From Dehalococcoidia bacterium (GTDB lineage: Bacteria > Chloroflexota > Dehalococcoidia > Bin125): 64,000 nt of DNA. The position numbers were made by a program, and so were the translations under genes. Location of the stretch: the NCBI GenBank assembly GCA_965205165.1, contig OZ242037.1, positions 1,706,576 to 1,770,575 on the forward strand, given 5' to 3'. The notes under the pieces are model-generated. The model saw only the letters and a program-made list of their open reading frames with translations, was not told the DNA's origin and did no database searches. Positions 1 to 20,419 of the stretch are shown here, one piece after another. Position 1 is the first letter of the stretch. The number at the start of each line of letters is the position of its first letter.

Positions 1-813
1 GGCATCGACCTCGGCATCGACGACTTCGACCGCGTCTCCGAGCGCACCCCCCTGATCGGCGACCTCCGCCCCGGCGGCCGCTACGTCGCCCTCGACATGG
101 ACCGCGCCGGCGGCACCCCCCTCCTCGCCAAGCGCCTGCTCGAACACGACCTCATCCACGGCGCCGAAATGACCGTCACCGGCAAGACCCTCGCCGAATC
201 CGCCGCCGACGCCGGGGAAACCGAAGGCCAGGACGTCATCCTCCCCGTCGAACGCGCCCTCAAGCCCACCGGCGGCCTCGTCATCCTCAAGGGCTCCCTC
301 GCCCCCCAAGGCGCAGTCGTCAAAGTCGCCGGCCACGAGCGCCAGCTCCACACCGGCCCCGCCCGCGTCTTCGAGCGCGAAGAAGACGCCATGGCAGCCG
401 CCACCACCGGCCGAATCAACGAAGGCGACGTCGTCGTCATCCGCTACGAAGGCCCCAAAGGCGGCCCGGGCATGCGCGAAATGCTCGGCGTCACCGCCGC
501 CCTCGTCGGCGCCGGCTTGGGCGACTCCGTGGCCCTCCTCACCGACGGCCGCTTCAGCGGCGCAACCCGCGGCCTCATGATCGGCCACGTAGCCCCCGAA
601 GCCGCCATCAACGGCCCCATCGCCCAAGTCCAAGAACACGACCAAATCACCATCGACATCCCCAACCGCCGCCTAGACCTCAACGTCCCCGCCCCCGAGC
701 TCCAAGCCCGAAGGGAAACCTGGACCCCCCCCGCCCCCAACTACGCCCGCGGCATCTTCGCCAAATACGCCGCCCAAGTCTCCGGCGCAGAACAAGGCGC
801 CGTCACCAGCTGA
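1..813 (+). CDS. IlvD/EDD-family dehydratase, C-terminal part (5' end lies outside the window)
   Basis: The frame is open from base 1. The translation '[26 protein letters not shown]...[18 protein letters not shown]...LTDGRFSG' matches the conserved C-terminal region of the dihydroxy-acid/6-phosphogluconate dehydratase family. Confidence 0.8.
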
Positions 814-842
814 CCGTGCTATGATGGACACGGAGCCGCCCC

Positions 843-2222
843 ATGCTGACCGAAATCACCCTAGAAAACTTCCGCTGCTTCCACGAGCAACAAACTGCCC
901 GCTTGGCCCCCCTCACCCTTTTGGTGGGCGAAAACAGCACCGGTAAGACATCCTTCCTAGCGCTGCTTCGAGCGCTAGCGGAGTTCGCCAACACTGGCGA
1001 GACCCCCAGATTTACCGAACCGCCATATGAACTCGGCTCGTTTGCGGACATTATTCATCATACCGAAGGCAACCTCAGACCGCAATCCTTCGATGCTGGT
1101 TTCACAGCGATCTATCCTCGTCGTGGGCCTGTGAAACCAAATGTTCCGATCTCTTTTTCCGTGACGTTTGAAGAGCATGCTGCTACACCTGTGCCTGTCA
1201 GACGAAGAATCTCACATGATGAAGCATGGATCGAAGATCGCTTAATTCAGAAAGCGAACTATAGTATTATATGCCATACTCGCCGTGGCGACTGGAGTAT
1301 CCCGTTTCGCCGCTTCGAAGCAGAGTACGGTGAACTAGGCGACTACAGTCGTACCTTGAGCACCGCATTGCGGCCTCTTCGATGGCCCGGTGTTCAGCAT
1401 GCAGATATAGATATCGATCTTTTCCATCCAATCGCGGCTTCACCTAAGATCGCCGAAGCGGACATTATTGAGCTTCGGAATGTTGCAGAACGTTATTTTT
1501 TTAGTTACCGTGGACAAATAAGCGATCATACATATGCCGGAGCTCCGATCCGATCGCAACCACAACGCACATACCGCCCATCTCGCCCAACTCCAGATCC
1601 GGAAGGAAATTACATTCCTTCGTATTTTGCTGATCTTTCAGTTCGAGACCCCAAGGAATGGCAAATTCTCAAAGGTGAACTTGAAAAATTTGGGAGAGAT
1701 GCTGGGCTATTCGACTCAATCGGTATCATGCAGTATGGCGAGGCAGGTAGCGGTCCGTTCGAAATCCAAATCTATCAAGGAGACAACAAACCTCAGCGTG
1801 CGAGAAATTTGATCGACATGGGATACGGGGTGAGTCAGGTCTTGCCAATAATCACAGAGTTACAGCGCCCAATTCCACGACGAAGCACATCAACACAATA
1901 TCTGCTACAGCAACCGGAAGTTCACCTGCATCCAAGTGCTCAAGCCGCACTCGGATCGCTCCTGTGTAACCTTGCATCCGAGCAGAGACAGCTGTTCGTG
2001 GAGACTCACAGCGATTATATCGTGGATCGTATACGATGGGATGTCCGTGATGGTCGGACAAATCTTCAAGAGAAGGATGTGTCAATCCTCTATTTCGAAC
2101 GACGAGGCACGGATGTCATGATTCATTCACTGGAACTAGATGAAGAAGGCCAAGTTAACGGGCAACCAGAGAGTTACCGAAAATTCTTCACGGCCGAAGT
2201 TCGACGCCAGCTGGATCTCTGA
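843..2222 (+). CDS. AAA-family ATPase (RecF/ABC-like, AAA_21/AAA_15-type), likely the ATPase of a two-gene abortive-infection or defence-like module
   Basis: The N-terminus 'ITLENFRCF...LTLLVGENSTGKTSFL' is a Walker A P-loop. The downstream 'LLQQPEVHLHP...LFVETHSDYIV' gives Walker B/D-loop and signature-like motifs. A TATGAT -10-like box lies about 20 nt upstream. The gene is AT-richer than its surroundings. Confidence 0.75.
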   Translation: MLTEITLENFRCFHEQQTARLAPLTLLVGENSTGKTSFLALLRALAEFANTGETPRFTEPPYELGSFADIIHHTEGNLRPQSFDAGFTAIYPRRGPVKPNVPISFSVTFEEHAATPVPVRRRISHDEAWIEDRLIQKANYSIICHTRRGDWSIPFRRFEAEYGELGDYSRTLSTALRPLRWPGVQHADIDIDLFHPIAASPKIAEADIIELRNVAERYFFSYRGQISDHTYAGAPIRSQPQRTYRPSRPTPDPEGNYIPSYFADLSVRDPKEWQILKGELEKFGRDAGLFDSIGIMQYGEAGSGPFEIQIYQGDNKPQRARNLIDMGYGVSQVLPIITELQRPIPRRSTSTQYLLQQPEVHLHPSAQAALGSLLCNLASEQRQLFVETHSDYIVDRIRWDVRDGRTNLQEKDVSILYFERRGTDVMIHSLELDEEGQVNGQPESYRKFFTAEVRRQLDL

Positions 2223-2223
2223 C

Positions 2224-2709
2224 ATGTGTGCCATCGTTGATGCCAGTGGCGCGAACGATGTGTTCGGTAAGAACCGCCCAGAGATCGGGAGTACGTTTTT
2301 TGATTGGATCAACGATCATGGTCGCATTCTGACTGGCGGAAAACTAACAATGGAGATCGGTGATCTGTGCCCACGCTTTCTCGAGTGGGCGAAAGAAGCT
2401 GAAAGGACAGGTAAATTAAAAAGAATGAGTCACTCGAAAATTCACAGAGAGATAACCGAAGTCATCAAGCGTAAGCATGGTGGTTCTCCTTTGAACGATG
2501 CCCATATACTCGCCATTGCCCGCCTAGGCGGAGCGCGACTGTTGTATGCAAACGATAAAGACTTGTTGGAAAACTTTGTCGATTCGCACCTTGTCTCGCG
2601 TCCACAAGGTGACACATTGACGAGCCTCACTGGGGGCCGCGTCACCGATGAAGATCGAGAAATATTGGAGCGAGCAACAGAGAGATGTCGCCGGCAGAAG
2701 TCCGGGTAA
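2224..2709 (+). CDS. Small partner protein of the AAA ATPase with a PIN-like acidic-residue pattern (possible nuclease)
   Basis: An ATG lies 1 nt after the ATPase stop, suggesting translational coupling. The 'MCAIVDASGAND...NDAHILAIARLGG...LLYANDKDL' segment has a PIN/TOPRIM-like arrangement of conserved Asp residues. The gene is low in GC. The family assignment is tentative. Confidence 0.45.
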   Translation: MCAIVDASGANDVFGKNRPEIGSTFFDWINDHGRILTGGKLTMEIGDLCPRFLEWAKEAERTGKLKRMSHSKIHREITEVIKRKHGGSPLNDAHILAIARLGGARLLYANDKDLLENFVDSHLVSRPQGDTLTSLTGGRVTDEDREILERATERCRRQKSG

Positions 2710-2727
2710 GACTAAAATAGCACCTCC

Positions 2728-4083
2728 CTACCCTGCCACCGTCTCATACGCCCCCGCCACTTGGCACACCGTCGCCTCGTCCCAGTGCCGCCCGCCGATC
2801 ATCAGCCCGATCGGCAAACCCTTCTCGTCAAACCCGCATGGCACCGAAATCGCTGGAATCCCCGTCACGTCAAACGGCGCCGTCAGCCTCGCCAGCTCCG
2901 CAGTCGGATCCCCGTCTTCGATCAGCGGCGCAGTCCGCGAACAAGTCGGCGACACCAGAACATCGACTTGCTCCAGCACACCCCGCGTCTCCTCGATGAA
3001 CTTCCGCCGCAATCGCTGGTCGTTGATGTAATCGACCGCGCTCACCGTGAGCCCCGCCTCGATCCGTGGCAGGATGTCGCCGTATTCGTCCCGCCGCTCG
3101 CGCAGCCACTTCTCGTGGTAGGCCGCCGCCTCCGCGATGATCGTCAGGCCGCGCCCGCTCCCCGTCTGCAGCGGCAACTCGACCTCTTCCACCACCGCGC
3201 CCAGCCCGCGCAGCACATCGACCGCCTCCGTGCATGCCGTCGCGACTTCGTCGTCCACTCCGTCCCACAGCATCTTCGTCGCCAGCCCGATCTTGAGCCC
3301 GGAGATCTCCTCGCCCAACTTCGCCGCCGCGTCGTCCACCGGCCGCTCCGCGCTGCCGGGGTCCGCCGGGTCGTGCCCCGCGATCGCGTTCAGCACCAGC
3401 GCCGCGTCCTCCACCGTCTTCGCCAGCGGCCCCACGTGGTCCAGCGTCCACGAGAGCGGCAGCACGCCCGCCCGCGAGACGCGACCGTACGTCCCCATCA
3501 GCCCGACCACGCCGCACAGCGACGCCGGTATCCGGATGCTCCCGCCCGTGTCCGACCCCAGCGCCGCCAGCGACGAACCGACCGCGACCGACGCCCCGCT
3601 GCCGCCGCTGCTCCCGCCCGGCGAGCGCTCTTCATCCCACGGATTCCGCACCGCCCCGAAATGCGGATTCCGGCTCGTCGTCCCGAACGCGAACTCGTGC
3701 AGGTTCAGCTTCCCCGGCATCACCGCGCCCGCCTCCTGCAGCTTGCGGTACACAGTCGCGTCCGCCTCCGGCACCCGCTCCCGCAGGAAGCCCGATCCTC
3801 CCGTCGTCGCAATCCCCGCCGTGTCCACCAAGTCCTTCAGCGCCACCGGAATCCCGTGCAGCGGCCCCAGGTCGCGCCCGTCCCGCAGCGCCGCGTCCGC
3901 CTCCGCCGCCTGTTCCCGCGCCAAGTCCCCCGTCACCGTGATGTACGCGTTCAGCCGCGGCTCCGTCTCCGCGATCCGCCCCAGCACCGACTCCGTCAGC
4001 CCCGCCACCGTCAACGATCCGTCCCGCAGCGCCGCCCCCGCCTCGACGATCGTCAACTCATGCGGCTGCCGCTCCCCGGCCAT
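2728..4083 (-). CDS. Amidase (amidase-signature family, GatA-like)
   Basis: A full-length 451-aa ORF carries the amidase-signature region 'GGSSGGSGASVAVGSSLAALGSDTGGSIRIPAS' with the Ser-cisSer-Lys catalytic residues in context. Confidence 0.9.
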   Translation of the reverse strand: MAGERQPHELTIVEAGAALRDGSLTVAGLTESVLGRIAETEPRLNAYITVTGDLAREQAAEADAALRDGRDLGPLHGIPVALKDLVDTAGIATTGGSGFLRERVPEADATVYRKLQEAGAVMPGKLNLHEFAFGTTSRNPHFGAVRNPWDEERSPGGSSGGSGASVAVGSSLAALGSDTGGSIRIPASLCGVVGLMGTYGRVSRAGVLPLSWTLDHVGPLAKTVEDAALVLNAIAGHDPADPGSAERPVDDAAAKLGEEISGLKIGLATKMLWDGVDDEVATACTEAVDVLRGLGAVVEEVELPLQTGSGRGLTIIAEAAAYHEKWLRERRDEYGDILPRIEAGLTVSAVDYINDQRLRRKFIEETRGVLEQVDVLVSPTCSRTAPLIEDGDPTAELARLTAPFDVTGIPAISVPCGFDEKGLPIGLMIGGRHWDEATVCQVAGAYETVAG

Positions 4084-5210: not shown

Positions 5211-6323
5211 GTGGAACTTCACGATCAGCTCGTGGCACTCGCCCAGCGGCTTCCCAGCCTCCAAGGCAGTCTGCAGACCGAGGAGGCCACCAAGCACGCA
5301 CTGGTGCTGCCGTTCATCGCGGCGCTCGGCTACAACGTGTTCGACCCCGCCCAAGTCATCCCGGAGTACGTCGCCGATGTCGCTGGCCTGAAGGGCGAGA
5401 AGGTCGATTACGTGCTCATGCACGACGGCGTGCCAGCGGTGCTGATCGAGTGCAAACAGGCGAATGTTGAGCTGCTTGACCGCCACCTTGCTCAGATCTC
5501 GCGGTACTTCACTCGAACGCCAGCCAAGATCGGCGTCCTCACGAACGGCATCGTGTACCGGTTCTTCACGGACCTTACCGAGCCGAATGTGATGGACGAT
5601 GAGCCGTTCCTCGCCTTGGACCTCCGCCAACTAGATACGGACGCGGTCAAGGAGCTTCACCGAATCACGCACGATCGCCTCGATCTGGACGGGATGGTCG
5701 AGGCCGCACGCGAGCTCTCGTATCTCAACGGCATGCAAGCAGTGCTTGCACGGCAGTTGACGGAGCCCGACGAAGATCTGGTTCGGTGGCTGGCCGGGCA
5801 GGTGTACAACGGCAGGCTCACAGAGTCGGTCCGTGCCGAGTTCGCCGAGAGAACGAAGAATGCCTTCCGCTCTCTGATCAACGATCGCGTGAATGAGCTC
5901 GTAAAGCGCGCCGCTGAATTCCAGAAGGCCGACTCGGCCGCCGACGCTGATCTAGAGGAAGAGATCGGCGGAGCCGACGAGGACGATCTGGACCCGGACG
6001 ACGAAGGCGACGGCATCGTCACGACTGTGGAGGAGATGGAGGCCCTCGACCTGATTCGGGCGATCTTGGCAGACACAATCAGCGCCGATCGCGTGGTGAT
6101 GCGCGACAACAAGGCCTACTGCGCCATCCTCCTCGACGACAACAACCGCAAGCCGCTGGTCCGATTGCGGTTCGGCAAGCGCAAGAAGGTCATCGGGCTG
6201 TTCGACGCCGAGAAGAACGAGACCAAGTACCCCATCAGGTCGCTCAACGAGCTGTACCGATACCATGATGAGCTGTGCGAGACCGTCGCGCGCTACGACG
6301 AGAATCGAGCAGACGATGACTGA
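5211..6323 (+). CDS. Stand-alone type I restriction enzyme HsdR N-terminal-like (PD-(D/E)xK nuclease fold) protein
   Basis: The segment 'LVLPFIAALGYNVFDP...EKVDYVLMHDGVPAVLIECKQANVEL' fits the D...E-x-K core of the HsdR_N family. It is followed by an acidic Asp/Glu-rich tail. A GTG start follows the RBS 'GGGAGAAAGG'. GC is lower than in the neighbouring genes. Confidence 0.6.
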   Translation: MELHDQLVALAQRLPSLQGSLQTEEATKHALVLPFIAALGYNVFDPAQVIPEYVADVAGLKGEKVDYVLMHDGVPAVLIECKQANVELLDRHLAQISRYFTRTPAKIGVLTNGIVYRFFTDLTEPNVMDDEPFLALDLRQLDTDAVKELHRITHDRLDLDGMVEAARELSYLNGMQAVLARQLTEPDEDLVRWLAGQVYNGRLTESVRAEFAERTKNAFRSLINDRVNELVKRAAEFQKADSAADADLEEEIGGADEDDLDPDDEGDGIVTTVEEMEALDLIRAILADTISADRVVMRDNKAYCAILLDDNNRKPLVRLRFGKRKKVIGLFDAEKNETKYPIRSLNELYRYHDELCETVARYDENRADDD

Positions 6324-8370: not shown

Positions 8371-9234
8371 ATGGCCGTAAAGAGCACCTATCGGGCACTG
8401 AGCTTGGGAGCGGGCGTGCAGAGCACCGTGCTCGCCCTCCTGCTCTCACGGGGTGACAGCCGGCTCCGAAAGCGCGGCTATCCGACACCGGACGTCGCGA
8501 TTTTCGCCGACACCGGCTGGGAACCGCAGTACGTCTACCGCCATTTGGACTGGCTGACCGAGGAGCTCGCGTTCCCTGTCGAGATTGTGAGGGCGGGTGA
8601 CCTGCGCGAGAACCTGCCGCGCGCCCGGACGCCGCAGGGCTACCGGTTCGTGGATGTGCCCCTCTTCACGGTCAACCCCGACGGCAAGAAGGGGATGCTC
8701 CGCCGCCAGTGCACGAACCACTACAAGGTCGCGCCGATCACCAAGGCGGTCCGTGAATGGGCGGGCGGCGTTCGAGGCCGCCCGTTCCCCCCCGATACGC
8801 GGGTTGAGATGTGGCTCGGCATCTCGACCGACGAGGTGCTCCGCATGAAGCCCAGCCGCGAGCACTGGATCGACCATCGCTGGCCGCTGATCGACCTGGA
8901 CATGTCCCGCCAAGATTGTCTAGACTGGTTCCATGCCCACTACCCGGACCGCCACCTCCCCCGCTCCGCCTGCGTCATCTGCCCCTTCCGGTCCGACGCG
9001 CATTGGGCCGAGCTCCGGGACGAGGAGCCCGAGAGCTACGCGGAAGCCGTGGCGTTCGACCGCTCGCTGCGCCAAGGCAGGAGTCGTCACGCGGTGCGCC
9101 GAGTCATCGATGGACGCCCGTATCTCCACGCTTCCCGGCGCCCGCTGGACACGGCGACCGTGGAAGGCTCGCAGGGCCCTGCCATCGACCTTGACGAGTT
9201 CGTCTCAGAGTGCGAAGGCATGTGCGGTGTCTGA
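8371..9234 (+). CDS. PAPS-reductase-like PP-loop ATP pyrophosphatase (DndC/SspD/phage PAPS-reductase-like; predicted nucleic-acid modification enzyme)
   Basis: A 'SLGAGVQST' PP-loop (SGGxDS-type) lies near the N-terminus and a C-terminal Cys cluster 'SACVICPFRSD' is present. An ATG at 8371 follows 'GAGGAGG'. The ORF could instead begin at the GTG at 8350. Confidence 0.8.
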   Translation: MAVKSTYRALSLGAGVQSTVLALLLSRGDSRLRKRGYPTPDVAIFADTGWEPQYVYRHLDWLTEELAFPVEIVRAGDLRENLPRARTPQGYRFVDVPLFTVNPDGKKGMLRRQCTNHYKVAPITKAVREWAGGVRGRPFPPDTRVEMWLGISTDEVLRMKPSREHWIDHRWPLIDLDMSRQDCLDWFHAHYPDRHLPRSACVICPFRSDAHWAELRDEEPESYAEAVAFDRSLRQGRSRHAVRRVIDGRPYLHASRRPLDTATVEGSQGPAIDLDEFVSECEGMCGV

Positions 9235-10486
9235 CAGGACCACATTCGTGGAGACAGCCCTCCCTCTTCACGATTATCAACGACAGGTTCTGCATGACCT
9301 GCTGGTCGCAGTCTTGCCATCCCGGACATCAGGGAGGGGCGGACGCGCCGTTGCCCACATGCCGACCGGAGCAGGGAAAACTCGAATGGCTTGCCATGCC
9401 GCTGCGACGATCCTGAATCAGTGGCCAGCTGAGGGAAAGGTCGTTGTCTGGCTCGCATCATCTGAAGAGCTCTGCGAACAGGCGGCCGATTCGCTGCTGG
9501 AAGCGTGGCGAAGCATCGGTAATCGCGGTATTGCCCTCCATCGGTTCTGGGGTTCCGATGTCGCGCCACTGGAAGATATCTCCGAAGGGTTTCTCGTTGC
9601 CGGGCTTCCCAAATTGAGGGCTGCCGCTAGCCGTAAGCAAGGTCTACTTGCTCCCCTCGCCCAGAACGTTGCTGGTATATTCTTTGATGAAGCGCATCAA
9701 GCGATCGCTCCTACCTATTCGTTGATAACGGAGCAACTTGCGACATACAGTCCGCCACTGATCGGTCTTACGGCTACGCCCGGTCGCACCTATGAAGTCA
9801 AGGAAGAAGACGAGCGTCTAGCCGATATGTTTCATCATAGGAAAGTCGCAATCAATCCACGTGGTCACGAGAACGCGCTCACGTATCTTATTCGGAATCA
9901 GTATCTTGCGGAACCAGATTTTCACATCATGCAAGTTGATTCATCGATCGATCTTGATGAACCATCAGTAGATGCCGAGTACCGCACCGATGGTCTCCGT
10001 TCACTGGGGCGAGACGAGGCTTGGAGAGCGGCGGTTGCATCGGTCACACGTGACGCACTATCACGGCACCGGCGGGTGATTGCATTCTGTCCCTCTGTGT
10101 CTTGCGCGATCAACGTTGCCGAGACACTCAAATCGGAGTCGCTAAATGCTGATGCTATTACTGGCGAAACGCCAACTGAGGACCGCATAGATACTATAGA
10201 TCGTTTCCGCAGCGACTCTCGGATTCCGATGGCGCTGATAAATTTTGGAGTACTCACAACTGGCTTTGACGCCCCACAGACAAGCTGCGTCATCGTTGCT
10301 CGCCCGACTAATTCTTTAGTACTATATTCGCAGATGGTAGGACGCGCAATGCGTGGTCCTCGCTCAGGAGGAAATAGAGACTGCACAATCTATTCACTGA
10401 TCGGTCCAAGCCACGTCGCTTTCGATTCGGTCATCCACGAGTTCGAGCATTGGGAAGAACTATGGCAGACCGAGCAGAACAACTGA
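9227..10486 (+). CDS. Superfamily-2 DEAD/DEAH-box helicase (type III restriction Res-like minimal helicase)
   Basis: Motif I is 'AHMPTGAGKT', motif II 'FFDEAHQ', motif III 'LTATPGR' and motif VI 'QMVGRAMRG'. The start overlaps the upstream stop. The start codon is uncertain and may be the GTG at 9227. Confidence 0.8.
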   Translation: MSDRTTFVETALPLHDYQRQVLHDLLVAVLPSRTSGRGGRAVAHMPTGAGKTRMACHAAATILNQWPAEGKVVVWLASSEELCEQAADSLLEAWRSIGNRGIALHRFWGSDVAPLEDISEGFLVAGLPKLRAAASRKQGLLAPLAQNVAGIFFDEAHQAIAPTYSLITEQLATYSPPLIGLTATPGRTYEVKEEDERLADMFHHRKVAINPRGHENALTYLIRNQYLAEPDFHIMQVDSSIDLDEPSVDAEYRTDGLRSLGRDEAWRAAVASVTRDALSRHRRVIAFCPSVSCAINVAETLKSESLNADAITGETPTEDRIDTIDRFRSDSRIPMALINFGVLTTGFDAPQTSCVIVARPTNSLVLYSQMVGRAMRGPRSGGNRDCTIYSLIGPSHVAFDSVIHEFEHWEELWQTEQNN

Positions 10487-12288
10487 AACTTAATGAGCCA
10501 CTGTTTGACCCACAAGTGGCGATGCGTGCGATGCGCGACAGTAGATACCGGAGAGAATCTAACGCGATCGCTGAACTCATTGACAACTCTGTTGATGCGC
10601 GTGCGCGGCGTGTTGAGCTGCTGCTATTCGAAGAGCAGCGACAAGGCAACGTGAATGATGTATGGCGAGTGGGCCAACTCGCAGTGGTTGACGATGGCCT
10701 CGGCATGGATCCGCGCACGCTCCAGCAGGCGCTCCGGTTCGGTGGAAGATCAGACGACGGACGGATCCACCGCATTGGAAAATACGGCGTCGGGTTGCCG
10801 ACAGCATCGGCGTCACAATGCCTTCGCGTTGATATTTGGACATGGCAAGAGCCGACAGAACAGCCGTGGCATTGTTTTTTGGATATTGGTGCTATTGAGC
10901 GAGGTGAAGTCAGTTCCATAGCGCCTGCAGAGCGTCACCCCTTGGATGAGAGAGTGCGCCGATTCGTGACAAGCCAAGGCTTGCGGAGTAATAGTGGCAC
11001 GGTGGTGCTGTGGAGTGACATAGATCGCATCAAGGCGCGACCAGAAACCATCTTTGGACGCCTTGAGCGTGAAATTGGCCGAATCCACCGACACCGGATT
11101 AGCGATGGCCGACTGACGATACACGCCCGTGCGATTAGAGACGGAGTTGTTCGACCAGAGACCGACAGATCACTTCGCCCAAACGATCCATTGTTTTTGA
11201 TGGAGGATACTGCCACAGCGCCACCTTGGGATCACGAGCCGATGTTTAAGCCATATGGTGAATCTATGCGCTACACTGTAGATGTCGATGGCCGAATGGA
11301 GCATGTAGAAGTTCGATACTCAATGGTGAAACGAGAAGCAATCGGTAATGATCCGACACAGCCTGGACGGCGGCCACATGGTAAAGATGCCATGGAGAAT
11401 GCGGGCGTCTCCATTGTTCGAGAGGAGCGAGAGCTGTTACTTGATCGCTCGTTCGTCGGCGCGGGGGCACGACGCGATGAACCTCAGCATCGATGGTGGG
11501 GTTGCGAGGTCAGGTTCGATTCAGGATGTGACGATCTGTTCGGAGTTGATCACAATAAGCAGATGGCATCAGCGTTTTCCGATTTGGCGGAAGAGATGGC
11601 AAGGAGTGATGATGCAGATTATGTGTTGAGGGAACAACTCAAGGAAGATCATCAACTCTATGAGATCGTTGAAGATATCAGAAGCACTATTCGTGCAATG
11701 CGTGGAGAAATCAATCAAATGTTTGGGCAGAGGCGTGCAGCTTTGCAAAGATCTAAGACTATATCGCCAGAGAAAGAGGCAGAACGTCGGGCCTCGCTCG
11801 CCGTAGCCGATCAACTAGAATCAGGAGCCACACTTACACAGACTGACAGAATGCGAGAACAGACGAGTCCAGAAGTGCGCATAGCACGGTTCGCAAGTTT
11901 CCTGCAGGATCGTGGAGTTGCTGACCCCGAGGATAGTGCTCGTGAGCATGTGGAAGAGAATATTTGGTTTCGGTTCCGATCCGCCGAACTGAGCGGATCT
12001 CAGATATTCATGGTTGAGCGAAGTGAAGGTATCTTGGTCGTAGTCCTCAATGTGCATCACCCGATTCATAAGTTCATCCAATTTCTCGAGCAACGAGAAG
12101 ATAATCAAATGGCCCACCAGTCAGCCGTGGCTATTCTAACACTGATTTTGGCATGGGCCCGCATGGAAGATCATATCGAACGAACCGACGATCGCCGTGA
12201 ATTGCAAAACATCGCTATAGAGTGGGGCAAGCAAGTGGAAAGAATATTGGCGCAACTGGTGACAGAGCTCAGTGCAGGAGACTTATAG
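10450..12288 (+). CDS. GHKL-superfamily ATPase (MORC/MutL-like, HATPase_c)
   Basis: The N-box 'AIAELIDNSVDA' and the G1 box 'VVDDGLGMD' match the Bergerat ATPase fold. The gene overlaps the helicase 3' end. Confidence 0.75.
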   Translation: MGRTMADRAEQLKLNEPLFDPQVAMRAMRDSRYRRESNAIAELIDNSVDARARRVELLLFEEQRQGNVNDVWRVGQLAVVDDGLGMDPRTLQQALRFGGRSDDGRIHRIGKYGVGLPTASASQCLRVDIWTWQEPTEQPWHCFLDIGAIERGEVSSIAPAERHPLDERVRRFVTSQGLRSNSGTVVLWSDIDRIKARPETIFGRLEREIGRIHRHRISDGRLTIHARAIRDGVVRPETDRSLRPNDPLFLMEDTATAPPWDHEPMFKPYGESMRYTVDVDGRMEHVEVRYSMVKREAIGNDPTQPGRRPHGKDAMENAGVSIVREERELLLDRSFVGAGARRDEPQHRWWGCEVRFDSGCDDLFGVDHNKQMASAFSDLAEEMARSDDADYVLREQLKEDHQLYEIVEDIRSTIRAMRGEINQMFGQRRAALQRSKTISPEKEAERRASLAVADQLESGATLTQTDRMREQTSPEVRIARFASFLQDRGVADPEDSAREHVEENIWFRFRSAELSGSQIFMVERSEGILVVVLNVHHPIHKFIQFLEQREDNQMAHQSAVAILTLILAWARMEDHIERTDDRRELQNIAIEWGKQVERILAQLVTELSAGDL

Positions 12289-13113
12289 ATGCGTGCTGTT
12301 GATATTCTGAGTGAACATGCAGCATCTGCCGACGCGGCAGTAATTGTGGCACCGTATATAAAAGAAGACGCACTGAAACCTCTCCTTGAAAAATTACCTC
12401 CTGCCGCGACATTGCTTTGTGTCTCTAGATGGACCGTGGAAGATGTACGTCGTGGCGTATCTGATATTACCTGTTTCAGGCAAGTGATAGACCATGGCGG
12501 TACGTTCCGGCTACATCAGCGCCTACATGCAAAATATTTCCGATTCAGTGATGCTGTATTTATTGGCTCGGCAAATGTAACGCAGAATGGATTAGGCATA
12601 TCGCTTTCACCAAACATCGAGATTCTCCATTCACCGAGTCAGTCTTTTGATGCGCAAAGGTTCGAAGATGAGATAATTGCCGAATCGATTGCAATAAATG
12701 AGAATGAAGCCAAGCTTTGGCAAAAGATACAACAGACGAATCAGCTGGATAATGAGTTATTGCAAGAAGCAATGGCGATGGATACTTGGCTGCCAACGAC
12801 AAGAGAACCATATCATGTGTGGCTGGCATACAGTAGACGAAGTGGTGAAATCATATCGGCAGATGAACGAAGACTCGCGGAACGAGAGTTGGAAAGACTA
12901 AGATTCCCTGAAAACTTAGAAGAAGCTGATTTTAATTCATGGCTCGCAGCTCGTCTATTGAGCTCAGCACGAGTATATGATGTCAGGCTTTCGTTGCAGT
13001 TGGAGGATGCAGTTGGTTGGGATCTCTTGGTCGCGAGATGGGGGGTGAGCCGGAGTGTGGCGGCCCGGACCCAGACGACGGTTGCGAACTGGTTGCGGGA
13101 GATGGTGGGGTGA
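12289..13113 (+). CDS. Phospholipase-D-family (HKD) nuclease, single HKD motif (Nuc/BfiI-like)
   Basis: The motif 'HAKYFRFSDAVFIGSANVTQNGL' is H-x-K-x4-D-x6-GSxN. The ATG starts immediately after the upstream stop. Confidence 0.75.
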   Translation: MRAVDILSEHAASADAAVIVAPYIKEDALKPLLEKLPPAATLLCVSRWTVEDVRRGVSDITCFRQVIDHGGTFRLHQRLHAKYFRFSDAVFIGSANVTQNGLGISLSPNIEILHSPSQSFDAQRFEDEIIAESIAINENEAKLWQKIQQTNQLDNELLQEAMAMDTWLPTTREPYHVWLAYSRRSGEIISADERRLAERELERLRFPENLEEADFNSWLAARLLSSARVYDVRLSLQLEDAVGWDLLVARWGVSRSVAARTQTTVANWLREMVG

Positions 13114-13174
13114 ACCGTTAGTCATTGATGGAGATTCTGCCGCCGGAGTTCGACCGCTGGAAGACCTGATCGGG

Positions 13175-13192
13175 AGGCGCTATCCTGCGGGT
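13175..13192 (+). promoter_or_regulatory. Recurrent promoter-like motif GCGCTATCCTGCGG (approximate coordinates) ~25-30 nt upstream of the LLM oxidoreductase start
   Basis: The same 12-14-mer containing a TANNNT-type -10 hexamer (TATCCT) recurs upstream of at least four other genes in the window. It is followed by GAGGAGG and an ATG. Confidence 0.45.
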
Positions 13193-13213
13193 CTGCGCTG
13201 AGGAGGTGTCGCC

Positions 13214-14347
13214 ATGCCTGTCGAGTTCATCGGGATGATCGGGGTCAAGCCGTCGGAGCGGGATGCGGCGACGAGCATCATCGGAGGCGGCGTCGACCGC
13301 GACTACCTCTGCGAGTTCACCCGCGCCCACGAGGAGTCGGACTTCGACCAGGTGCTGGTCGGCTACACCTCGGCCGCGGCCGACGGGCTGCACGTGGCGC
13401 AGGCCGCCGCCGCCTGCTCGGAGCGGATCAAGTTCCTGATCGCCCACCGGCCCGGCTTCGTCGCGCCGACCCTCGCCGCCCGCAAGTTCGCCACGCTCGA
13501 CTACTTCACCGGCGGCCGCATCTCCGTCCACATCATCTCCGGCGGCAGCGACCCCGAACAGCGCCGCGACGGCGACTACCGCGACCACGACGCCCGCTAC
13601 CGCCGCACCGGCGAGTACCTCGACGTGATGCGGCGCGTGCTGCGCGGCGAGACCCCGTTCGACTTCCACGGCGAGTTCTACGACTTCGAGGCGTCCAACT
13701 CCGACGTCGCGCCCGTGCAGCCCGGCGGCATCCCGATCTTCTTCGGCGGCGCCTCCGAGATCGCCTTCCGGATCGGCGTCAAGCACTGCGACGTCTACAT
13801 GATGTGGGGCGAGCCGCGCGCCTCGATCGCGGCCACCATCGCCGACGTGCGCGCGCTGGCCGCGGAATACGGGCGCGAGCCCCGCTTCAGCGTCTCCTTC
13901 CGCCCGATCATCGCGCCCACCGAGGCCGCGGCCTGGGAGAAGGCCGAGCGCTACCTGAAGACGGTCAAGGACCTGCGCGCCGGCCCGCTCGGCTCCCGCT
14001 CGGAGTCCCGCGGCTCGCAGCGCCTGCTCGAATTCGCCGCCCAGGGCGAGCTGCACGACGAGCGCCTCTGGATGCCGATCGCCGCCGCCACCGGCGCGAC
14101 CGGCAACACCACCGCGCTGGTCGGCACCCCCGAGCAGGTCGCCGACTCGCTGCTCAAGTACATCGACCTGGGCGTCTCGACGATCCTCATCCGCGGCTTC
14201 AACCCGCTGCCCGACGCCCGCGACTACGGCGAGGAGCTGATCCCGCTCGTGCGCGCCGAAGTGGCCAAGCGCGACGCCGAAGCGGCGCGGCAATCGTCCG
14301 CCGCCGCCGAGCGGGAAGCGGCCGAAGCGGTCGCGGTGGCTGACTGA
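13214..14347 (+). CDS. LLM-class flavin/F420-dependent oxidoreductase (luciferase-like monooxygenase)
   Basis: The 377-aa product shows a TIM-barrel LLM signature in 'RISVHIISGGSDPEQRRDGDY...GVSTILIRGF'. Confidence 0.85.
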   Translation: MPVEFIGMIGVKPSERDAATSIIGGGVDRDYLCEFTRAHEESDFDQVLVGYTSAAADGLHVAQAAAACSERIKFLIAHRPGFVAPTLAARKFATLDYFTGGRISVHIISGGSDPEQRRDGDYRDHDARYRRTGEYLDVMRRVLRGETPFDFHGEFYDFEASNSDVAPVQPGGIPIFFGGASEIAFRIGVKHCDVYMMWGEPRASIAATIADVRALAAEYGREPRFSVSFRPIIAPTEAAAWEKAERYLKTVKDLRAGPLGSRSESRGSQRLLEFAAQGELHDERLWMPIAAATGATGNTTALVGTPEQVADSLLKYIDLGVSTILIRGFNPLPDARDYGEELIPLVRAEVAKRDAEAARQSSAAAEREAAEAVAVAD

Positions 14348-15540
14348 TGGCGGCCGACGGCGCGACGCTCGCGCGCGAGGCCGAACGGCGCATCCGCGCC
14401 TACGAGCGGCTCGGCATCCACCGCACCGGCTGGGGCGCCGACGACGCGGCCGCGCACTGGCTGGTGGAAGAACTGGCCGCCATCGGCATCGAAGGCCGGG
14501 TCGAGCAGTTCGATTTCCCGCAGCTGCACATCCGCCGCGCCGAACTGCGGATCGGCGACCGCGCCGTCCCCGGCGTCCCGCTCTACGACTGCGGGACGAC
14601 TGGACGCGAGGGCGTCTCCGCCCCGCTGATCGCCGCGCCCGACGGAGTGCTCGCCGGCCCGGGCCCGGCAATCGCGGTCTGGGAGCTGCCGGACGCCGAC
14701 ACGCGGCGGCTGACCCCCGCGGTCTACGAAACGCTGGAATCGCTGGCCGCGGCCGGCGCAATCGGCGTGCTGATGGTCATGGGCGACGAACACGGCGATC
14801 CCGTCCTGCGCAACGCCGAGCGCCCCGACGACCCGCTCCCCCTGCCCGTCCTGCAAGTCGCCCCCAAGGACATCGGCGAAGGCTTGGCCGGCGAAGCGAC
14901 GCTCGTGATCGACGCCGAGCGGCGGCCGGGCACGGCGCTCAACGTCGCCGCGGAGATCGCCGGGGCGAACCCGTCGCTCGCGCCGGTGGTGCTGATGACG
15001 CCCAAGAGCGGCTGGTACACCTGCGCGGCCGAGCGCGGCGGCGGCCTCGCCGTCTGGCTCGCCGTCGCCGAGGCAATCGCAAAGCAGCCCGGCGAGCGGA
15101 CCCTGAGCCTGATCGCCAGCAGCGGCCACGAACTCCACCACTACGGCCTCGACGCCTGGCTAGACGGCCCGCCCGGCGTGCCGGCGCAGGACGCGCACGT
15201 CTGGATCCACCTGGGCGCGAGCATCGGCGCCAAGCGCGGCATCGGCCGCATCGGCGCTGCCGACGAAGAGCTGATGGCGCTGGCCAAGCAAGCGCTGGCC
15301 GAACACGGCATAGATCGGGACCCGATGGCCGTCGGCTTCTCCGGCTACGGCGAAGCCCGCAACATCGCCGAGCGCGGCGGCCGCTACATCAGCCTCTTGG
15401 GCGGCCACCCCTACTTCCACAGCCCCAACGATGTCTTCGAGCAGGCGGTGGACATCGAGTCGCTGGTCGCGCACGCAATTGCGTGGCGCTCGCTGGTTGC
15501 CGAGCTCGCGCAATCTGCCGATGCTGGCGCGACGGGGTAA
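14347..15540 (+). CDS. Hypothetical protein (possibly peptidase-like)
   Basis: A 397-aa ORF with strong GC3 codon bias. Its ATG overlaps the upstream stop as TGATG. No confident family was recognised. Confidence 0.5.
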   Translation: MAADGATLAREAERRIRAYERLGIHRTGWGADDAAAHWLVEELAAIGIEGRVEQFDFPQLHIRRAELRIGDRAVPGVPLYDCGTTGREGVSAPLIAAPDGVLAGPGPAIAVWELPDADTRRLTPAVYETLESLAAAGAIGVLMVMGDEHGDPVLRNAERPDDPLPLPVLQVAPKDIGEGLAGEATLVIDAERRPGTALNVAAEIAGANPSLAPVVLMTPKSGWYTCAAERGGGLAVWLAVAEAIAKQPGERTLSLIASSGHELHHYGLDAWLDGPPGVPAQDAHVWIHLGASIGAKRGIGRIGAADEELMALAKQALAEHGIDRDPMAVGFSGYGEARNIAERGGRYISLLGGHPYFHSPNDVFEQAVDIESLVAHAIAWRSLVAELAQSADAGATG

Positions 15541-15551
15541 CGGAGCCGGCC

Positions 15552-17207
15552 ATGGCCGATTTCAACGCGGTCAACCGCGGTGTTTATGTGGCCGACAATC
15601 TGGAATTCCTGCGGCGCTTGAATGACGAGTGCATCGACTTGGCCTGCATCGATCCGCCGTTCTCGAAGGGCGACACGTTCGAGGGCGATCAGCTCAAACC
15701 CGATCTGTCCGACCACGAGCGCGAAGTAGAGCTGCGCCTGCTCCGAGGTTGGGGAATCCACGACGAGAACGACGCAAGCGACGCCGGCATCGCCTGGCCC
15801 GCGACGACGGCCGCCGGCTTCAAGGATGTCTGGTCGTGGGAACAGGATATCCATGAGGATTGGATCAAGGACTTGGCCGAGAACCACGCGCCGACGAGCG
15901 ATTTGATCGAGACGACGCGACTCATCCACGACGATCACATCGCGGCGTACCTCTGCTACATGGCGGTTCGACTAATCGAGATCCACCGCGTGCTCAAGCC
16001 CACCGGCAGCCTGTTCCTGCACTGCGACCACACGGCCAATGGCTACCTGCGCCAGCTGCTCGACAGCGTGTTCGGCAAAGACCAAATGCAGAATGAGATC
16101 ATCTGGTGCTATGCCCCCGCCGGCCGCCCGCCGAAGCGCGGCTTCCACCGCAAGCACGACACGATTTTCTACTACCGCAAGGCGAATGCGGGCTCGTTCA
16201 ATCATCAATACGGCCCGATGTCGCCGGAGACCTTGGCGACCTACTCGGAAACGGATGAAGAGGGCAGGCAATATAAGATCGCGCAGGGCGGGCGCCGAAC
16301 CTATCTCGATCAACAGCGCGGACGGCCGATCCCGTCGTGGTGGGATGACATTCCGTCATTCGGAACTGCAACGAATGCGCCGGAGCGCACGGGCTACCGC
16401 ACCCAGAAGCCGATCGCCCTCGCCGAACGCATCATCAGCGCCAGCACGAACGAGGGCGATGTCGTGCTTGACTGCTTCGCCGGCTGCGCATCCTCCGCGA
16501 TTGCCGCGGAGCGCTTGGACCGCAGATGGGTAGCCTGCGACCTGAACCCAAGAGCATGGACGGTGTTCAAGCGGCAATTCAGCAAGCCGAAGCTGGCGCT
16601 GTTGAGGTGCAGCGACGAAGTCTCCGGCCAAGCAGTATGGGGCGACGAGCCAGTCGTGACGGTGCACGGTCCCGGAAATCTGCCCGCTCGCACCTCGCAA
16701 GCCCAAGAGCAGCAGCCCGAGAAACGCGAACCGCACGAGCGTAAATTCAAGGTCCCCTCAAGCATCATCCCCGAAGAAGAGATGAAGGAAAAACTGCTGG
16801 AGTTCTCCGGCTACAAAGCGTGGTGCTGCGGTTTCGCCAACCGCCTGCCGGACGGCACGATCATCAAGACCACGCGCAACTTCCACTTGGATCACATCCT
16901 CCCCCGCTCGGAAGGCGGCTCCCATCAGATCATGAATCGTGCGCCAATGTGCCCATCACACAATCTCCGCAAGAGCACCCGTTCCGTGAATCTCGTTGAA
17001 TACCAGCGCGAGATCGCAGCCGCAGGCGAGCTCTGCGTCGAATCAATTGAGGAGCTCGTTGACCTACCGGAAGCCTATGAGTACGCACTAAAACTCTATG
17101 GCCAAGCCTATCAAGCTGATCAAAGAGTTAAGATTATGAAAACGAGCGTCTCAGTCTACCAGCAAACCACACTCAATCCCAATCGCCTAAGTGAGGTTAA
17201 CCGATGA
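15552..17207 (+). CDS. DNA methyltransferase (beta-class N6-adenine/N4-cytosine) fused to a C-terminal HNH endonuclease domain
   Basis: 'IDLACIDPPFSKGD' is motif IV (DPPY-type) near the N-terminus, and 'VVLDCFAGCASSAIAA' is the later AdoMet motif I. The C-terminal 'FHLDHILPRSEGGSHQIMNRAPMCPSHN' is an HNH motif. Confidence 0.8.
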   Translation: MADFNAVNRGVYVADNLEFLRRLNDECIDLACIDPPFSKGDTFEGDQLKPDLSDHEREVELRLLRGWGIHDENDASDAGIAWPATTAAGFKDVWSWEQDIHEDWIKDLAENHAPTSDLIETTRLIHDDHIAAYLCYMAVRLIEIHRVLKPTGSLFLHCDHTANGYLRQLLDSVFGKDQMQNEIIWCYAPAGRPPKRGFHRKHDTIFYYRKANAGSFNHQYGPMSPETLATYSETDEEGRQYKIAQGGRRTYLDQQRGRPIPSWWDDIPSFGTATNAPERTGYRTQKPIALAERIISASTNEGDVVLDCFAGCASSAIAAERLDRRWVACDLNPRAWTVFKRQFSKPKLALLRCSDEVSGQAVWGDEPVVTVHGPGNLPARTSQAQEQQPEKREPHERKFKVPSSIIPEEEMKEKLLEFSGYKAWCCGFANRLPDGTIIKTTRNFHLDHILPRSEGGSHQIMNRAPMCPSHNLRKSTRSVNLVEYQREIAAAGELCVESIEELVDLPEAYEYALKLYGQAYQADQRVKIMKTSVSVYQQTTLNPNRLSEVNR

Positions 17208-18517
17208 CTGAATCATCGTACTATGGGCTGTTTTGGCCAACATCCCAATCACGCCACCGCCACGCTGTGCCAGGACAGCTCAAAGTCGCGCCAACGGGTA
17301 AGCTGTCGCTTACCCTGTTCTCGCCCCATTATGATGCACGACCTCCGTGGTTTATCCCTCTTCCCGGCGATCCTGTTGAGCGATCTGTGTCGGGTGAGAT
17401 CTCGGGCCTTGGCGCTATCACCATCTTCCGTTGCGTGACCGGATCGCACACTCTATCATTCGGTCTAGATCAAATTATTGTCGCTGAGATGCTCTGTGGC
17501 GACGGTGCCGTTACACGTGTCGCCGCAAACTGCCATACCAGTCTTCGATTAAAGAACTTTACCCTTCCCGTTCCAGAGCTTTCATTATGGCGAGGAATCC
17601 CGTGGGTTCGTCCTGATGAGCACCGCCCTAGAAACGAATATGGATTTACTGTTACTCTTCCGGAATCGATCCGTGCGCAAGTGCAGCGCAATGAGCATCT
17701 GACGATAGATTATAGATATGAGCCGCAAGGAGGCGGAGCCAGCGACGATCGATTCAGCATCCGGTGCACACCAGCTGTAACATTAGCAGCAGCACATGGG
17801 CTCGATATTGATTGTGCACTCCAACGAATCCATGCGATAAAGGCATTCTTCATATTTCTACTAGATTCCCCGATCACTGAATCGCACCTTCTCTGCACCA
17901 TTGAGCAGCTAGCTCTTCGCCCTTCTGTGTGGATGCGAGATTTGCAGCACAATCGATGCGAATTGCTATTGACGCCCTTTCAATATAATTATCGCGAACG
18001 CAAACGCAATCTCCATGATGTTCTGCTGTTCGAGTCGGAGATAGTCTCAAATTTCAGCCAGATGCTCGAGCAATGGCTTCAGGTTTATACGACCGCACCT
18101 GAAGCCATTGTTCAATTCTTGGATGCCGTTCACAGTGAAGATTATAGACTTAATATTAAGTTTCTATTGCTCACCCAAGCGTTTGATGCCCTGCATCGAA
18201 CTAAAACGAAAGAGCAAGACAAGGCTTTCCGCGTTCGTCTTAATGATTGCCTAGCATCCTATCCAAGTTTGTTCGGTGATCAGGCTGCGCGACTTGATCT
18301 CATCGATCAAATTGTTCACACCCGCAATCGATATACACATGGCAGCGAGCGTCGGCCTGAATTTGAAGCTGGCGACGCAGAATTGTTCCCTCTTGCCCGA
18401 AAGATGGAAGCGATCATCATGGTATATTTACTGGATTGGCTTCTTCCAGATAACCATCAGTGGCCAACGCTGATCAAACAACGTCGGCCGTTCAAGGCAC
18501 GCATTAATCCAACATAG
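17204..18517 (+). CDS. Hypothetical protein with a C-terminal HEPN-like R-x4-H motif (Abi/ApeA-like candidate)
   Basis: Its ATG overlaps the MTase stop as ATGA. The gene is low in GC. The C-terminal 'LIDQIVHTRNRYTHG' fits HEPN R-x4-6-H. No other family was recognised. Confidence 0.5.
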   Translation: MTESSYYGLFWPTSQSRHRHAVPGQLKVAPTGKLSLTLFSPHYDARPPWFIPLPGDPVERSVSGEISGLGAITIFRCVTGSHTLSFGLDQIIVAEMLCGDGAVTRVAANCHTSLRLKNFTLPVPELSLWRGIPWVRPDEHRPRNEYGFTVTLPESIRAQVQRNEHLTIDYRYEPQGGGASDDRFSIRCTPAVTLAAAHGLDIDCALQRIHAIKAFFIFLLDSPITESHLLCTIEQLALRPSVWMRDLQHNRCELLLTPFQYNYRERKRNLHDVLLFESEIVSNFSQMLEQWLQVYTTAPEAIVQFLDAVHSEDYRLNIKFLLLTQAFDALHRTKTKEQDKAFRVRLNDCLASYPSLFGDQAARLDLIDQIVHTRNRYTHGSERRPEFEAGDAELFPLARKMEAIIMVYLLDWLLPDNHQWPTLIKQRRPFKARINPT

Positions 18518-18636
18518 TCAATCTGTTTTAATGTGATGGGGCGTGATGAAACACTAATGATATAGATGGAACAGAGAATTCGCCGCTGCGACATGAGACG
18601 CGCTGAAATTGTCTATCTGGCTATTGGATGCAACCG

Positions 18637-19122
18637 CTATCGCGTGGCCCAAGTAACCTGCCTCTCATCGCGTTGCACCTGATCCAGTGTCTGGTAATAG
18701 AAATGATGGAGGAACGGGAGCTGCGGCTCGCGGCCGTGTTGGAGGAACATCCAGAGCCAGAGGACGCGGCCGCTGCGGCCGTTGCCGTCCATGAAGGGAT
18801 GCAGGGTTTCGTAGCGGATGTGGGTCTGCCAGAGGTCGATCGGGTGGGTGTTGGCGTGATTGAGCAGGTCTGCAAGGTCGGTGCGGATTTTGGGGCCGCC
18901 TTGCGGCGGCGTGTGGTTGCCGACGAAGACGTTCATGCCGGGGTGTTCGCGGAGCTCGGCGTTGGCGCAGGTCCAGACGAACTGCTGCATGTCGCCGACG
19001 GTGATGTCGCGTTGGTCGAGGAACAGCTCGTGGGCCTCGATCTCCGCCTCGGTGACGCGGAAGATGCCCTCGATCCGGTTCGATTCTTCGACGAAGTCAT
19101 GCAGGTTGAATTCGCTGGGCAT
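18637..19122 (-). CDS. Fic/DOC-family protein
   Basis: It carries the canonical Fic motif 'HPFMDGNGRSGR' (HPFx[DE]GNGR). Confidence 0.85.
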   Translation of the reverse strand: MPSEFNLHDFVEESNRIEGIFRVTEAEIEAHELFLDQRDITVGDMQQFVWTCANAELREHPGMNVFVGNHTPPQGGPKIRTDLADLLNHANTHPIDLWQTHIRYETLHPFMDGNGRSGRVLWLWMFLQHGREPQLPFLHHFYYQTLDQVQRDERQVTWATR

Positions 19123-19132
19123 GTCGATTCTC

Positions 19133-20356: not shown

Positions 20357-20369
20357 GGCAGCGGATGAT

Positions 20370-20390
20370 AGCCGCTAGCCTGCGCGGGAT
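20370..20390 (+). promoter_or_regulatory. Variant of the recurrent motif (GCTAGCCTGCGCGG) upstream of the MBL hydrolase start
   Basis: One mismatch to the TATCCTGCGCGG core. It lies about 35 nt upstream of the ATG at 20420. Confidence 0.3.
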
Positions 20391-20419
20391 TGCGCGCCGC
20401 GCGCGGGTCAGGAGCCGCC

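Follow-up and report, generated by a model that had tools for sequence, protein, structure and literature searches.

A widespread two-gene ATPase–PIN cassette related to the HEC-03 module in a Dehalococcoidia bacterium

Introduction

One of the questions raised by the contig OZ242037.1 of a Dehalococcoidia bacterium (assembly GCA_965205165.1) is what two low-GC (guanine plus cytosine) genes are doing between an ilvD-family dehydratase gene and an amidase gene. The genes lie near the start of a stretch of 64,000 nucleotides (nt; positions 1,706,576 to 1,770,575, forward strand), which is called the window in this paper and in which all positions are given. In an initial annotation the pair was described as a two-gene cassette at 843-2709, in which an ATPase gene is followed after 1 nt by a gene for a partner of 161 amino acids (aa), and was interpreted as a defence or abortive-infection module. 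Both open reading frames (ORFs) and their spacing are as described there (Table 1). Here we find that the pair is a diverged relative of HEC-03 (Hma-embedded candidate 03), belonging to a widespread family that is for the most part unannotated, and not a new kind of system. We consider it probable, though well short of certain, that the two genes form a complete conflict module of the HEC-03 type, for which anti-phage abortive infection is the most likely role. The defence function is the one to which homology and genomic context point, and the initial interpretation is supported to that extent.

The ATPase and its PIN partner

The upstream gene encodes an ABC-type ATPase of the OLD/AAA_15 type, as the initial annotation had broadly recognized. 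It has more than 6,700 homologues and matches the Pfam families AAA_15 (6e-23) and AAA_21 (3e-17). In the Walker A motif, residues G29, N31, S32, G34, K35 and T36 are invariant in 36 homologues, and a GYG signature-like motif is found at aa 327-329. The Walker B motif is non-canonical. Its residues Q356, Q357, P358 and E359 are invariant in the family, and the Gln-Gln pair occupies the place of Glu-Glu in Thermus OLD 6p74 (IIEEPEMYLHP), of Asp-Gln in PtuA (LIDQIELHLHP) and of Glu-Gln in the HEC-03 ATPase (FMEQPEIHLHP). Judging from these residues, the protein may hydrolyse ATP slowly or with the help of the invariant Glu359. The ETHS motif, which had been read as a D-loop, is instead the ABC H-loop with the switch histidine: E387, T388 and H389 are invariant and the motif aligns with the sTHS of OLD and PtuA. 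The central insert of the ATPase is its least conserved part among 120 homologues and is a putative sensor or specificity region.

The C-terminal tail is made of two beta strands and a terminal helix and resembles DUF3696, with a Pfam score of 21.4 bits (E-value 2.9e-4) that falls just under the 22-bit cut-off. Three homologues, P0021, P0022 and P0063, have a PF12476 assignment, and plasmid homologues and the HEC-03 ATPase carry the DUF3696 annotation. By analogy with the predicted NsnB–NsnC complex of Menshen (PMC12065111), this tail may be the docking site for the PIN partner. RecF was rejected as an identity for the ATPase, with only the P-loop region matching (27 bits against a cut-off of 172 bits); the NCBIfam matches to RecF, PtuA and MAD3 are likewise restricted to the P-loop end. 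Among 131 PADLOC matches the NsnB model of Menshen ranks first (5.5e-45, 152.6 bits), followed by PDC-M55A (2e-30), the HEC-03 ATPase model PDLC04148 (2.3e-27) and AriA (1.3e-24).

The downstream gene encodes a VapC-like PIN-domain protein. The initial annotation had proposed a PIN- or TOPRIM-like pattern of acidic residues, of which the PIN part holds, catalytic residues included, and the TOPRIM part does not. The Pfam PIN model matches the window protein just above its threshold (24.5 against 23.6 bits) and 56 of 73 diverse members of the family. Because the PIN profile, searched against the sequences of solved structures, gave only a marginal match to VapC (E-value 0.33), it was a fold search that settled the PIN fold, with VapC toxins as the closest structures. 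The motifs are IVDASGAND (aa 4-12), NDAHILAIA (aa 91-99) and YANDKDL (aa 108-114), and the acidic residues D6, E44, D92 and D111 are at least 98% conserved among 82 PIN sequences. As far as its sequence tells, the partner is a PIN protein with an intact, competent-looking catalytic site, and it is predicted to be the Mg2+-dependent RNase effector of the pair. His94 (98%), Cys2 (98%) and Cys155 (95%) are near-invariant in the same 82 sequences; they may form a metal site or tie the N-terminal strand structurally to the C-terminal helix.

Some smaller observations concern the same protein. At position 88, Cys is the commonest residue (44 of the 82 sequences). The window protein has 161 aa against 163 aa in its closest relatives (L001-L003), and a CAA to TAA change at 2707-2709 ends it two codons early. 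TOPRIM, DUF4276/RloB and AriB/DUF4435 were also tried as identities for the partner and rejected; none found support, with no TOPRIM or DUF4435 match in Pfam or PADLOC, and the fold is that of PIN, which agrees with the earlier view that the partner is distinct from AriB.

Distribution, pairing and genomic context

With a word-indexed search, only 11 relatives of the PIN protein came to light. A profile search made exhaustively yielded 1,721 representative clusters (defined at 50% identity) at E ≤ 1e-3 and 1,000 at E ≤ 1e-10, and a scan of species-representative genomes gave at least 263 PIN loci across very diverse phyla. The hosts are mostly uncultured environmental lineages, and the best 80 genome loci (L006-L085) are all in metagenome-assembled genomes (MAGs). 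Many of their isolate names (SB06xx_bin, RHO, COS and CAR bins, and the 'isolate <uuid>' names of long-read assemblies) resemble those of sponge or marine-symbiont projects.

The two genes travel together. In 77 of the 78 loci that have upstream sequence, from many phyla, an ATPase gene lies directly upstream of the PIN gene, and these ATPases are 42-49% identical to that of the window. The gap from stop to start codon is between -1 and +4 nt in 62 of 81 pairs. The converse also holds: all three ATPases that were chosen irrespective of PIN have a PIN gene of this family directly downstream, one of these PIN genes being truncated. The pairing is strict, and the two genes are an obligate module. 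Exceptions are seen in single loci. In L053 the PIN gene has no adjacent ATPase gene, in L030 the ATPase is split and in L084 it is partial, and in L171 (4349-4468) the PIN protein is reduced to its first 40 residues. In three Rhodothermales loci a tandem second ATPase copy, 40-42% identical, stands next to the pair (L044 2509-3831, L055 2512-3828 and L050 1380-2708).

What surrounds the pair is far less constant. The immediate neighbours belong to 103 different Pfam families upstream and 81 downstream, mostly metabolic, and an all-against-all clustering of the neighbours at 81 loci gave no conserved third gene. The GC content of the pair is below that of its locus in 81 of 81 loci. Since the neighbours vary, no third gene is conserved and the GC content is lower, the pair is a mobile, accessory module; a conserved non-defence operon, which the initial annotation had named as a finding that would speak against defence, is not what these loci present. 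The commonest recognisable neighbours are defence genes. In 5 of 70 loci the gene before the pair is that of the HmaB methylase, and the HEC-01A ATPase adjoins the pair upstream in 4 of 70 and downstream in 6 of 73; altogether Hma or HEC-01 defence genes adjoin or embed about one locus in five.

The composition of the window copy fits this picture of foreign DNA. The flanks have a GC content of 0.70-0.75, which drops from about 0.70-0.72 to 0.48-0.51 in the tract from about 1000 to 2700, and a GC skew of -0.2 to -0.35, which is about 0 within the cassette. At third codon positions the GC content (GC3) of the two cassette genes is 0.46 and 0.51, while ilvD has 0.86 and the amidase gene 0.90. 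This bears out both the AT-richness first noted for the cassette and the anomaly that the initial annotation had proposed to check. The tract marks the foreign or fast-turnover part of the cassette.

The family is under-annotated, because gene callers missed the PIN ORF in several loci. It is intact but uncalled in L001 (4970-5461), L002 (2031-2522) and L169 (4383-4838), with an antisense ORF called in its place in L001 and L002. In L004 (7366-7372) GGT stands at the position of the start codon, and all that was called is a C-terminal fragment of 58 aa.

Two plasmids carry a more distant arrangement. In Azotobacter chroococcum (L167, 3944-6562) and Rhodococcus aetherivorans (L168, 3941-6503) the gene of a DUF3696 ATPase, 25-26% identical to that of the window, overlaps a downstream hypothetical gene (about 170 aa), behind which lies a gene annotated as 'RNA ligase family protein'. 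The small Rhodococcus protein bears a HEC-03-like DPSDRK...A.D motif, and these loci may be an ATPase–PIN–RNA ligase variant.

Comparison with HEC-03 and other ATPase systems

The initial annotation was correct that an ATPase is paired here with a small nuclease, but of the relatives it named (PARIS, Gabija, AbiL) none is the closest; these are HEC-03 and the NsnB protein of Menshen. HEC-03 was described from Pseudomonas cichorii, and it was shown that its protection of E. coli against phages depends on both genes and that it is toxic when induced (Payne et al., bioRxiv 10.1101/2024.01.29.577857). It consists of a DUF3696 ATPase (WP_025259138.1, 461 aa) followed by an overlapping gene for a PIN protein (WP_025259137.1, 157 aa). 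The window pair has the same gene order, with proteins of 459 and 161 aa, and its genes abut. By BLASTP, the window ATPase is collinear with the first 399 aa of WP_025259138.1 at 23% identity (E-value 2e-21). The two ATPases share the (E/Q)QPE.HLHPS.Q and ESHS/ETHS motifs, and both partners are VapC-like PINs that share a D..D...LA.A...GA......D.D stretch. As in HEC-03, HmaB adjoins some members of the window family. The same architecture, the homologous ATPases and the need of HEC-03 for both of its genes support a HEC-03-type module in the window.

There are also differences. The ATPases are only 23% identical and that of the window scores higher on the NsnB model; the first acidic position is Asp in the window PIN and Glu in the HEC-03 PIN; and the N-terminal Met-Cys and the C-terminal Cys are specific to the window family. 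Unlike HEC-03, the window copy is not embedded in an Hma (helicase-methylase-ATPase) system, having ilvD and amidase genes as its neighbours, although Hma embedding was the basis on which HEC-03 was discovered and is not a strict requirement for membership. The component names differ between sources: in PADLOC-DB the 159-position model (PDLC04147) is HEC-03A and the 458-position model (PDLC04148) is HEC-03B, whereas in the preprint the ATPase is HEC-03A and the PIN protein HEC-03B (bioRxiv 10.1101/2024.01.29.577857).

PARIS, Septu (PtuA/PtuB), Gabija and OLD have the same class of ATPase as the window pair, without its DUF3696 C-terminal tail. Their effectors are DNases, of the TOPRIM kind in AriB, GajA and OLD and of the HNH kind in PtuB, where the window pair has a separate PIN protein, the predicted RNase. 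PDC-M55 was considered as the nearest relative and rejected, since this candidate has three genes and nothing in the window matches the remaining ones.

Several points weigh against reading the pair as a HEC-03-type defence system. The PADLOC model of the HEC-03 PIN, PDLC04147, gives an E-value of only 0.039 for the window PIN and matches 1 of 73 family members at E ≤ 0.01, and an hhalign comparison with the PIN of HEC-03 reaches a probability of 35% over 36 columns, covering a short motif only; by these sequence comparisons the window PIN is not detectably orthologous to that of HEC-03. Most loci, that of the window included, lie among housekeeping genes and not in classical defence islands, and searches of the PLSDB plasmids and INPHARED phages yielded no member of the PIN family. 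The invariant Gln-Gln in Walker B may mean that ATP is bound without efficient hydrolysis, and the switch mechanism could then be unlike that of canonical ABC ATPases. Finally, a toxin–antitoxin (addiction) role would yield much the same genomic signatures.

Allelic mosaic at the ilvD–amidase site

The arrangement of ilvD, cassette and amidase gene is also found on three metagenome contigs (L001-L003). Between the window and L002 the flanking proteins are 98-99% identical, with synonymous divergence (dS) of 0.045 and 0.127, whereas the ATPases are 84% and the PIN proteins 86% identical, with dS of 0.58 and 0.32 and ratios of nonsynonymous to synonymous divergence (dN/dS) of 0.15-0.23. The flanks of the strains with mosaic alleles are 96-98% identical. 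Nucleotide identity to the allele of these near-identical strains is at least 97% over 200-1000, 70-80% in most of 1100-1800, 79-92% over 1800-2500 and mostly 92-98% beyond 2500. In the cassette interior dS reaches 0.93-1.03 with a dN/dS of 0.12-0.20, and by segment dN/dS is 0.03-0.34. L001 and L002 show the reverse pattern, with near-identical cassettes (dS 0.02) and differing amidase genes (dS 0.14). This mosaic indicates old alleles that were exchanged by recombination within the cassette, and not relaxed or positive selection alone. Mosaic alleles under purifying selection in near-identical strains support a defence module. More speculatively, recombination inside the cassette may reshuffle its specificity, in the insert of the ATPase and in the first half of the PIN protein.

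In another Dehalococcoidia MAG (OZ241913.1; L004, which is the same locus as L079) the same ilvD–amidase site, with flanking proteins 78% identical, holds a diverged pair of intermediate GC content, in which the ATPase is 51% and the PIN protein 37% identical to that of the window. For this reason the site is a long-occupied one, or a hotspot, whose contents turn over. The initial annotation had spoken of an inserted cassette; given the diverged pair in L004, it is not a simple recent insertion. A search for an empty site among metagenome contigs with the amidase gene gave relatives of at most 67% identity with neither ilvD nor the cassette nearby, and an exact look-up of the amidase found nothing, so that no cassette-free ilvD–amidase junction was recovered. 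Around the cassette of the window there is no target-site duplication and no terminal inverted repeat as an insertion scar, and the short direct and inverted repeats found there look like chance matches.

Alternative explanations

The main rival is a toxin–antitoxin module without a phage role, in which the PIN protein would be the toxin and the ATPase a large antitoxin or chaperone. In its addiction version the pair would be maintained through post-segregational killing or simply as selfish DNA. Its PIN fold is closest to VapC toxins, its genes are tightly coupled, its distribution is patchy and its contexts vary, and HEC-03 itself is toxic upon induction. The pair shares with VapBC the effector fold and the catalytic tetrad of the VapC ribonucleases. 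Yet there is no VapB-like DNA-binding antitoxin; the place of VapB (of the AbrB, MazE, RHH or Phd type) is taken upstream by the 459-aa ABC ATPase, and the PIN protein has an extra C-terminal helix and conserved cysteines that VapC does not have. No member of the PIN family was found on the PLSDB plasmids, although plasmids are where addiction modules are common, the related DUF3696 ATPase modules HEC-03 and Menshen have measured anti-phage activity, and about one locus in five is in or next to Hma or HEC-01 defence genes. The genomic evidence separates the two roles only uncleanly and they are not mutually exclusive; a purely toxin–antitoxin role seems to us unlikely, though it deserves to be kept in mind.

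Another explanation is that the cassette is a decaying, non-functional relic of horizontal acquisition, and damaged relatives do exist, with the truncated PIN of L171, the GGT start of L004 and the disrupted ATPases of L030 and L084. The two ORFs of the window, however, are undamaged and keep every motif, and their dN/dS is 0.15-0.23 overall and 0.03-0.34 by segment, which makes this very improbable for the window copy.

The NsnB match brings up a third explanation, in which the pair would be what is left of Menshen (NsnABC) after the loss of NsnA and of the NsnC effector domain. Menshen (Millman et al. 2022; Li et al., NAR 2025, PMC12065111) has measured anti-phage activity. It resembles the window pair in its NsnB-type ABC ATPase, with AAA_15 and a DUF3696 tail, a GxG signature and a deviant Walker B, and in its downstream partner of PIN fold. 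In Menshen the two DUF3696 tails of NsnB are predicted to clamp the N-terminal PIN-like domain of NsnC, in which an inactive PIN (inPIN) is fused to a separate C-terminal nuclease effector domain (PMC12065111). However, Menshen needs NsnA, a ParB-DUF262 protein plus ParBDB (PMC12065111), and at the place of NsnA the window has ilvD and not a DUF262 gene; neither DUF262 nor an NsnA-like family is among the recurrent neighbours of 70 loci. All 35 inPIN families of NsnC are without catalytic residues (PMC12065111), while the window partner is a single PIN domain whose family keeps the D-E-D-D residues at 98% or more of 82 sequences. The two-gene form is also stable across phyla and under purifying selection, and a Menshen remnant is to our mind scarcely credible. 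Equally hard to credit is a housekeeping pair for DNA repair or RNA processing, with a RecF/SMC-like ATPase and a PIN RNase tied to the metabolic neighbours, because the RecF match is confined to the P-loop region, GC3 is 40 points below that of the flanks, the contexts differ in nearly every genome and the alleles are highly diverged between near-identical strains.

A more speculative possibility is that the window pair belongs to a large unnamed clade of DUF3696 ATPases with an active PIN, which PADLOC does not pick up, and that this clade represents the minimal or ancestral ATPase–PIN form, in which the PIN would be both docking domain and effector; the Menshen PIN would later have become a dead adaptor that bears other nucleases, with NsnA as an added sensor. 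We offer this tentatively and do not consider it the probable course of events.

Proposed mechanism and implications

Returning to the HEC-03-type defence module, a mechanism can be suggested by analogy with HEC-03, Menshen, Septu and PARIS. At rest, an oligomer of the ATPase would hold the PIN protein silent through the DUF3696 tails, and the downstream PIN gene would be translationally coupled to the ATPase gene. The variable insert of the SMC/OLD-like ATPase probably senses a phage-derived trigger, and upon infection a nucleotide-dependent rearrangement would release or activate the PIN. This endoribonuclease, with its D-E-D-D metal site, would then cut host and/or phage RNA (tRNA, rRNA or mRNA), and growth would stop before phage release, as in abortive infection. 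What the sequences show are the two folds, the intact catalytic motifs, the strict pairing, the foreign composition, the purifying selection, the mosaic alleles and the association with defence genes, whereas the hold of the tails on the PIN, the kind of trigger, RNA as target and the abortive outcome come from the analogy.

If the pair is functional, the validated HEC-03 design is not confined to a few cultured Proteobacteria and reaches several hundred uncultured lineages, among them Dehalococcoidia, Binatia, Nitrospirales, Rhodothermales, Gemmatimonadota and Acidobacteriota. There the family is missed by current defence-finding models, and its PIN ORF is often uncalled. The family connects two-gene ATPase–PIN systems with the three-gene Menshen through the interface between DUF3696 tail and PIN fold, and the pair offers a simple system for the question of how such ATPases hold and release an effector. 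The natural Gln-Gln Walker B and the mosaic alleles of the sensor region would be starting points for work on mechanism and specificity.

Organization of the locus

Both ORFs are considered real genes because of the number of their homologues (more than 6,700 for the ATPase and 1,721 clusters for the PIN) and their dN/dS of 0.15-0.23. The ATPase gene ends with a TGA at 2220-2222, and after a single base the PIN gene begins with an ATG at 2224. An in-frame ATG at 2140 would give a protein of 189 aa, but 2224 is taken as the start because the homologues all begin with Met-Cys at that position. No small ORF with homologues lies between the two genes. The spacers are 29 nt from ilvD, of which the window shows the 3' end, to the ATPase gene and 18 nt from the PIN gene to the convergent amidase gene.

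A TATGAT hexamer is present where the initial annotation had placed a -10 box belonging to the cassette itself, but the promoter did not find support: a sigma-70 scan of 600-3000 called no promoter-like site, and the hexamer is conserved solely in the near-identical strains and is absent from the aligned position in L004. Since the spacer to ilvD is 29 nt, transcription by read-through from ilvD is equally possible. A terminator scan gave two terminator-like matches, both inside the ATPase gene and no more than expected by chance.

Table 1. Features of the ATPase–PIN cassette and its flanks, in window positions
Feature	Position	Strand	Basis or remark
ilvD-family dehydratase gene, 3' end	97-813	+	upstream flank
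TATGAT hexamer, candidate -10 box	820-825	+	18 nt upstream of ATPase start
Gene, 459-aa ABC ATPase (OLD/AAA_15 type, DUF3696-like C-terminal tail)	843-2222	+	
Walker A / P-loop GENSTGKT, aa 29-36	927-950	+	read from sequence
Low-GC, skew-neutral tract	1000-2700	no strand	GC, GC skew, GC3
Variable central insert of ATPase, aa 86-320	1098-1802	+	conservation, allele divergence
Non-canonical Walker B LLQQPEVHLHP, aa 354-364	1902-1934	+	alignment
ETHS, ABC H-loop/switch histidine motif, aa 387-390	2001-2012	+	
C-terminal DUF3696-like tail, aa 409-459	2067-2219	+	
Gene, 161-aa VapC-like PIN-domain protein	2224-2709	+	
PIN Cys2	2227-2229		
PIN His94	2503-2505		
PIN Cys155	2686-2688		
Amidase gene	2728-4083	-	downstream flank, convergent

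Other features of the window

The window holds further low-GC, defence-like islands within 19 kb, which, like the defence genes next to other members of the family, speak for a defence role of the pair. A stand-alone gene (5214-6323, + strand, GC about 0.62) for an HSDR_N / HSDR_N_2 protein of 369 aa sits between enoyl-CoA hydratase and CoA-transferase genes, a place where L004 does not have it. With L002 its allele shares 99-100% identity and with L001 only 61-87%, so the window has another hypervariable cassette at a distance of two genes from the pair.

A three-gene island of low GC (0.45-0.58) at 8933-13113 (+ strand) encodes a superfamily 2 (SF2) helicase (ResIII/Helicase_C), a GHKL ATPase (HATPase_c_3) with a weak MzaB match and a 274-aa protein with weak DrmC/ZacB (PLD-like) matches; it looks like another defence system. 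At 15483-18517 (+ strand) a fusion of an N6/N4 DNA methylase with HNH (574 aa) overlaps by 4 nt a low-GC gene of the ApeA type, whose protein has ApeA_NTD1 and HEPN_Apea domains and matches PDC-S58 in PADLOC. A small Fic/DOC protein of 161 aa, with a SoFic-like PADLOC match (1.8e-13), is encoded at 18637-19122 on the - strand.

The GC skew of the window is about -0.25 before 9 kb and +0.3 to +0.5 after 22 kb, irrespective of gene strand. DnaA boxes were rejected as the cause of this switch, as no consensus box occurs in 1-64000 even with one mismatch allowed. The change of sign (about 9000-22000) falls in the region of the low-GC islands.

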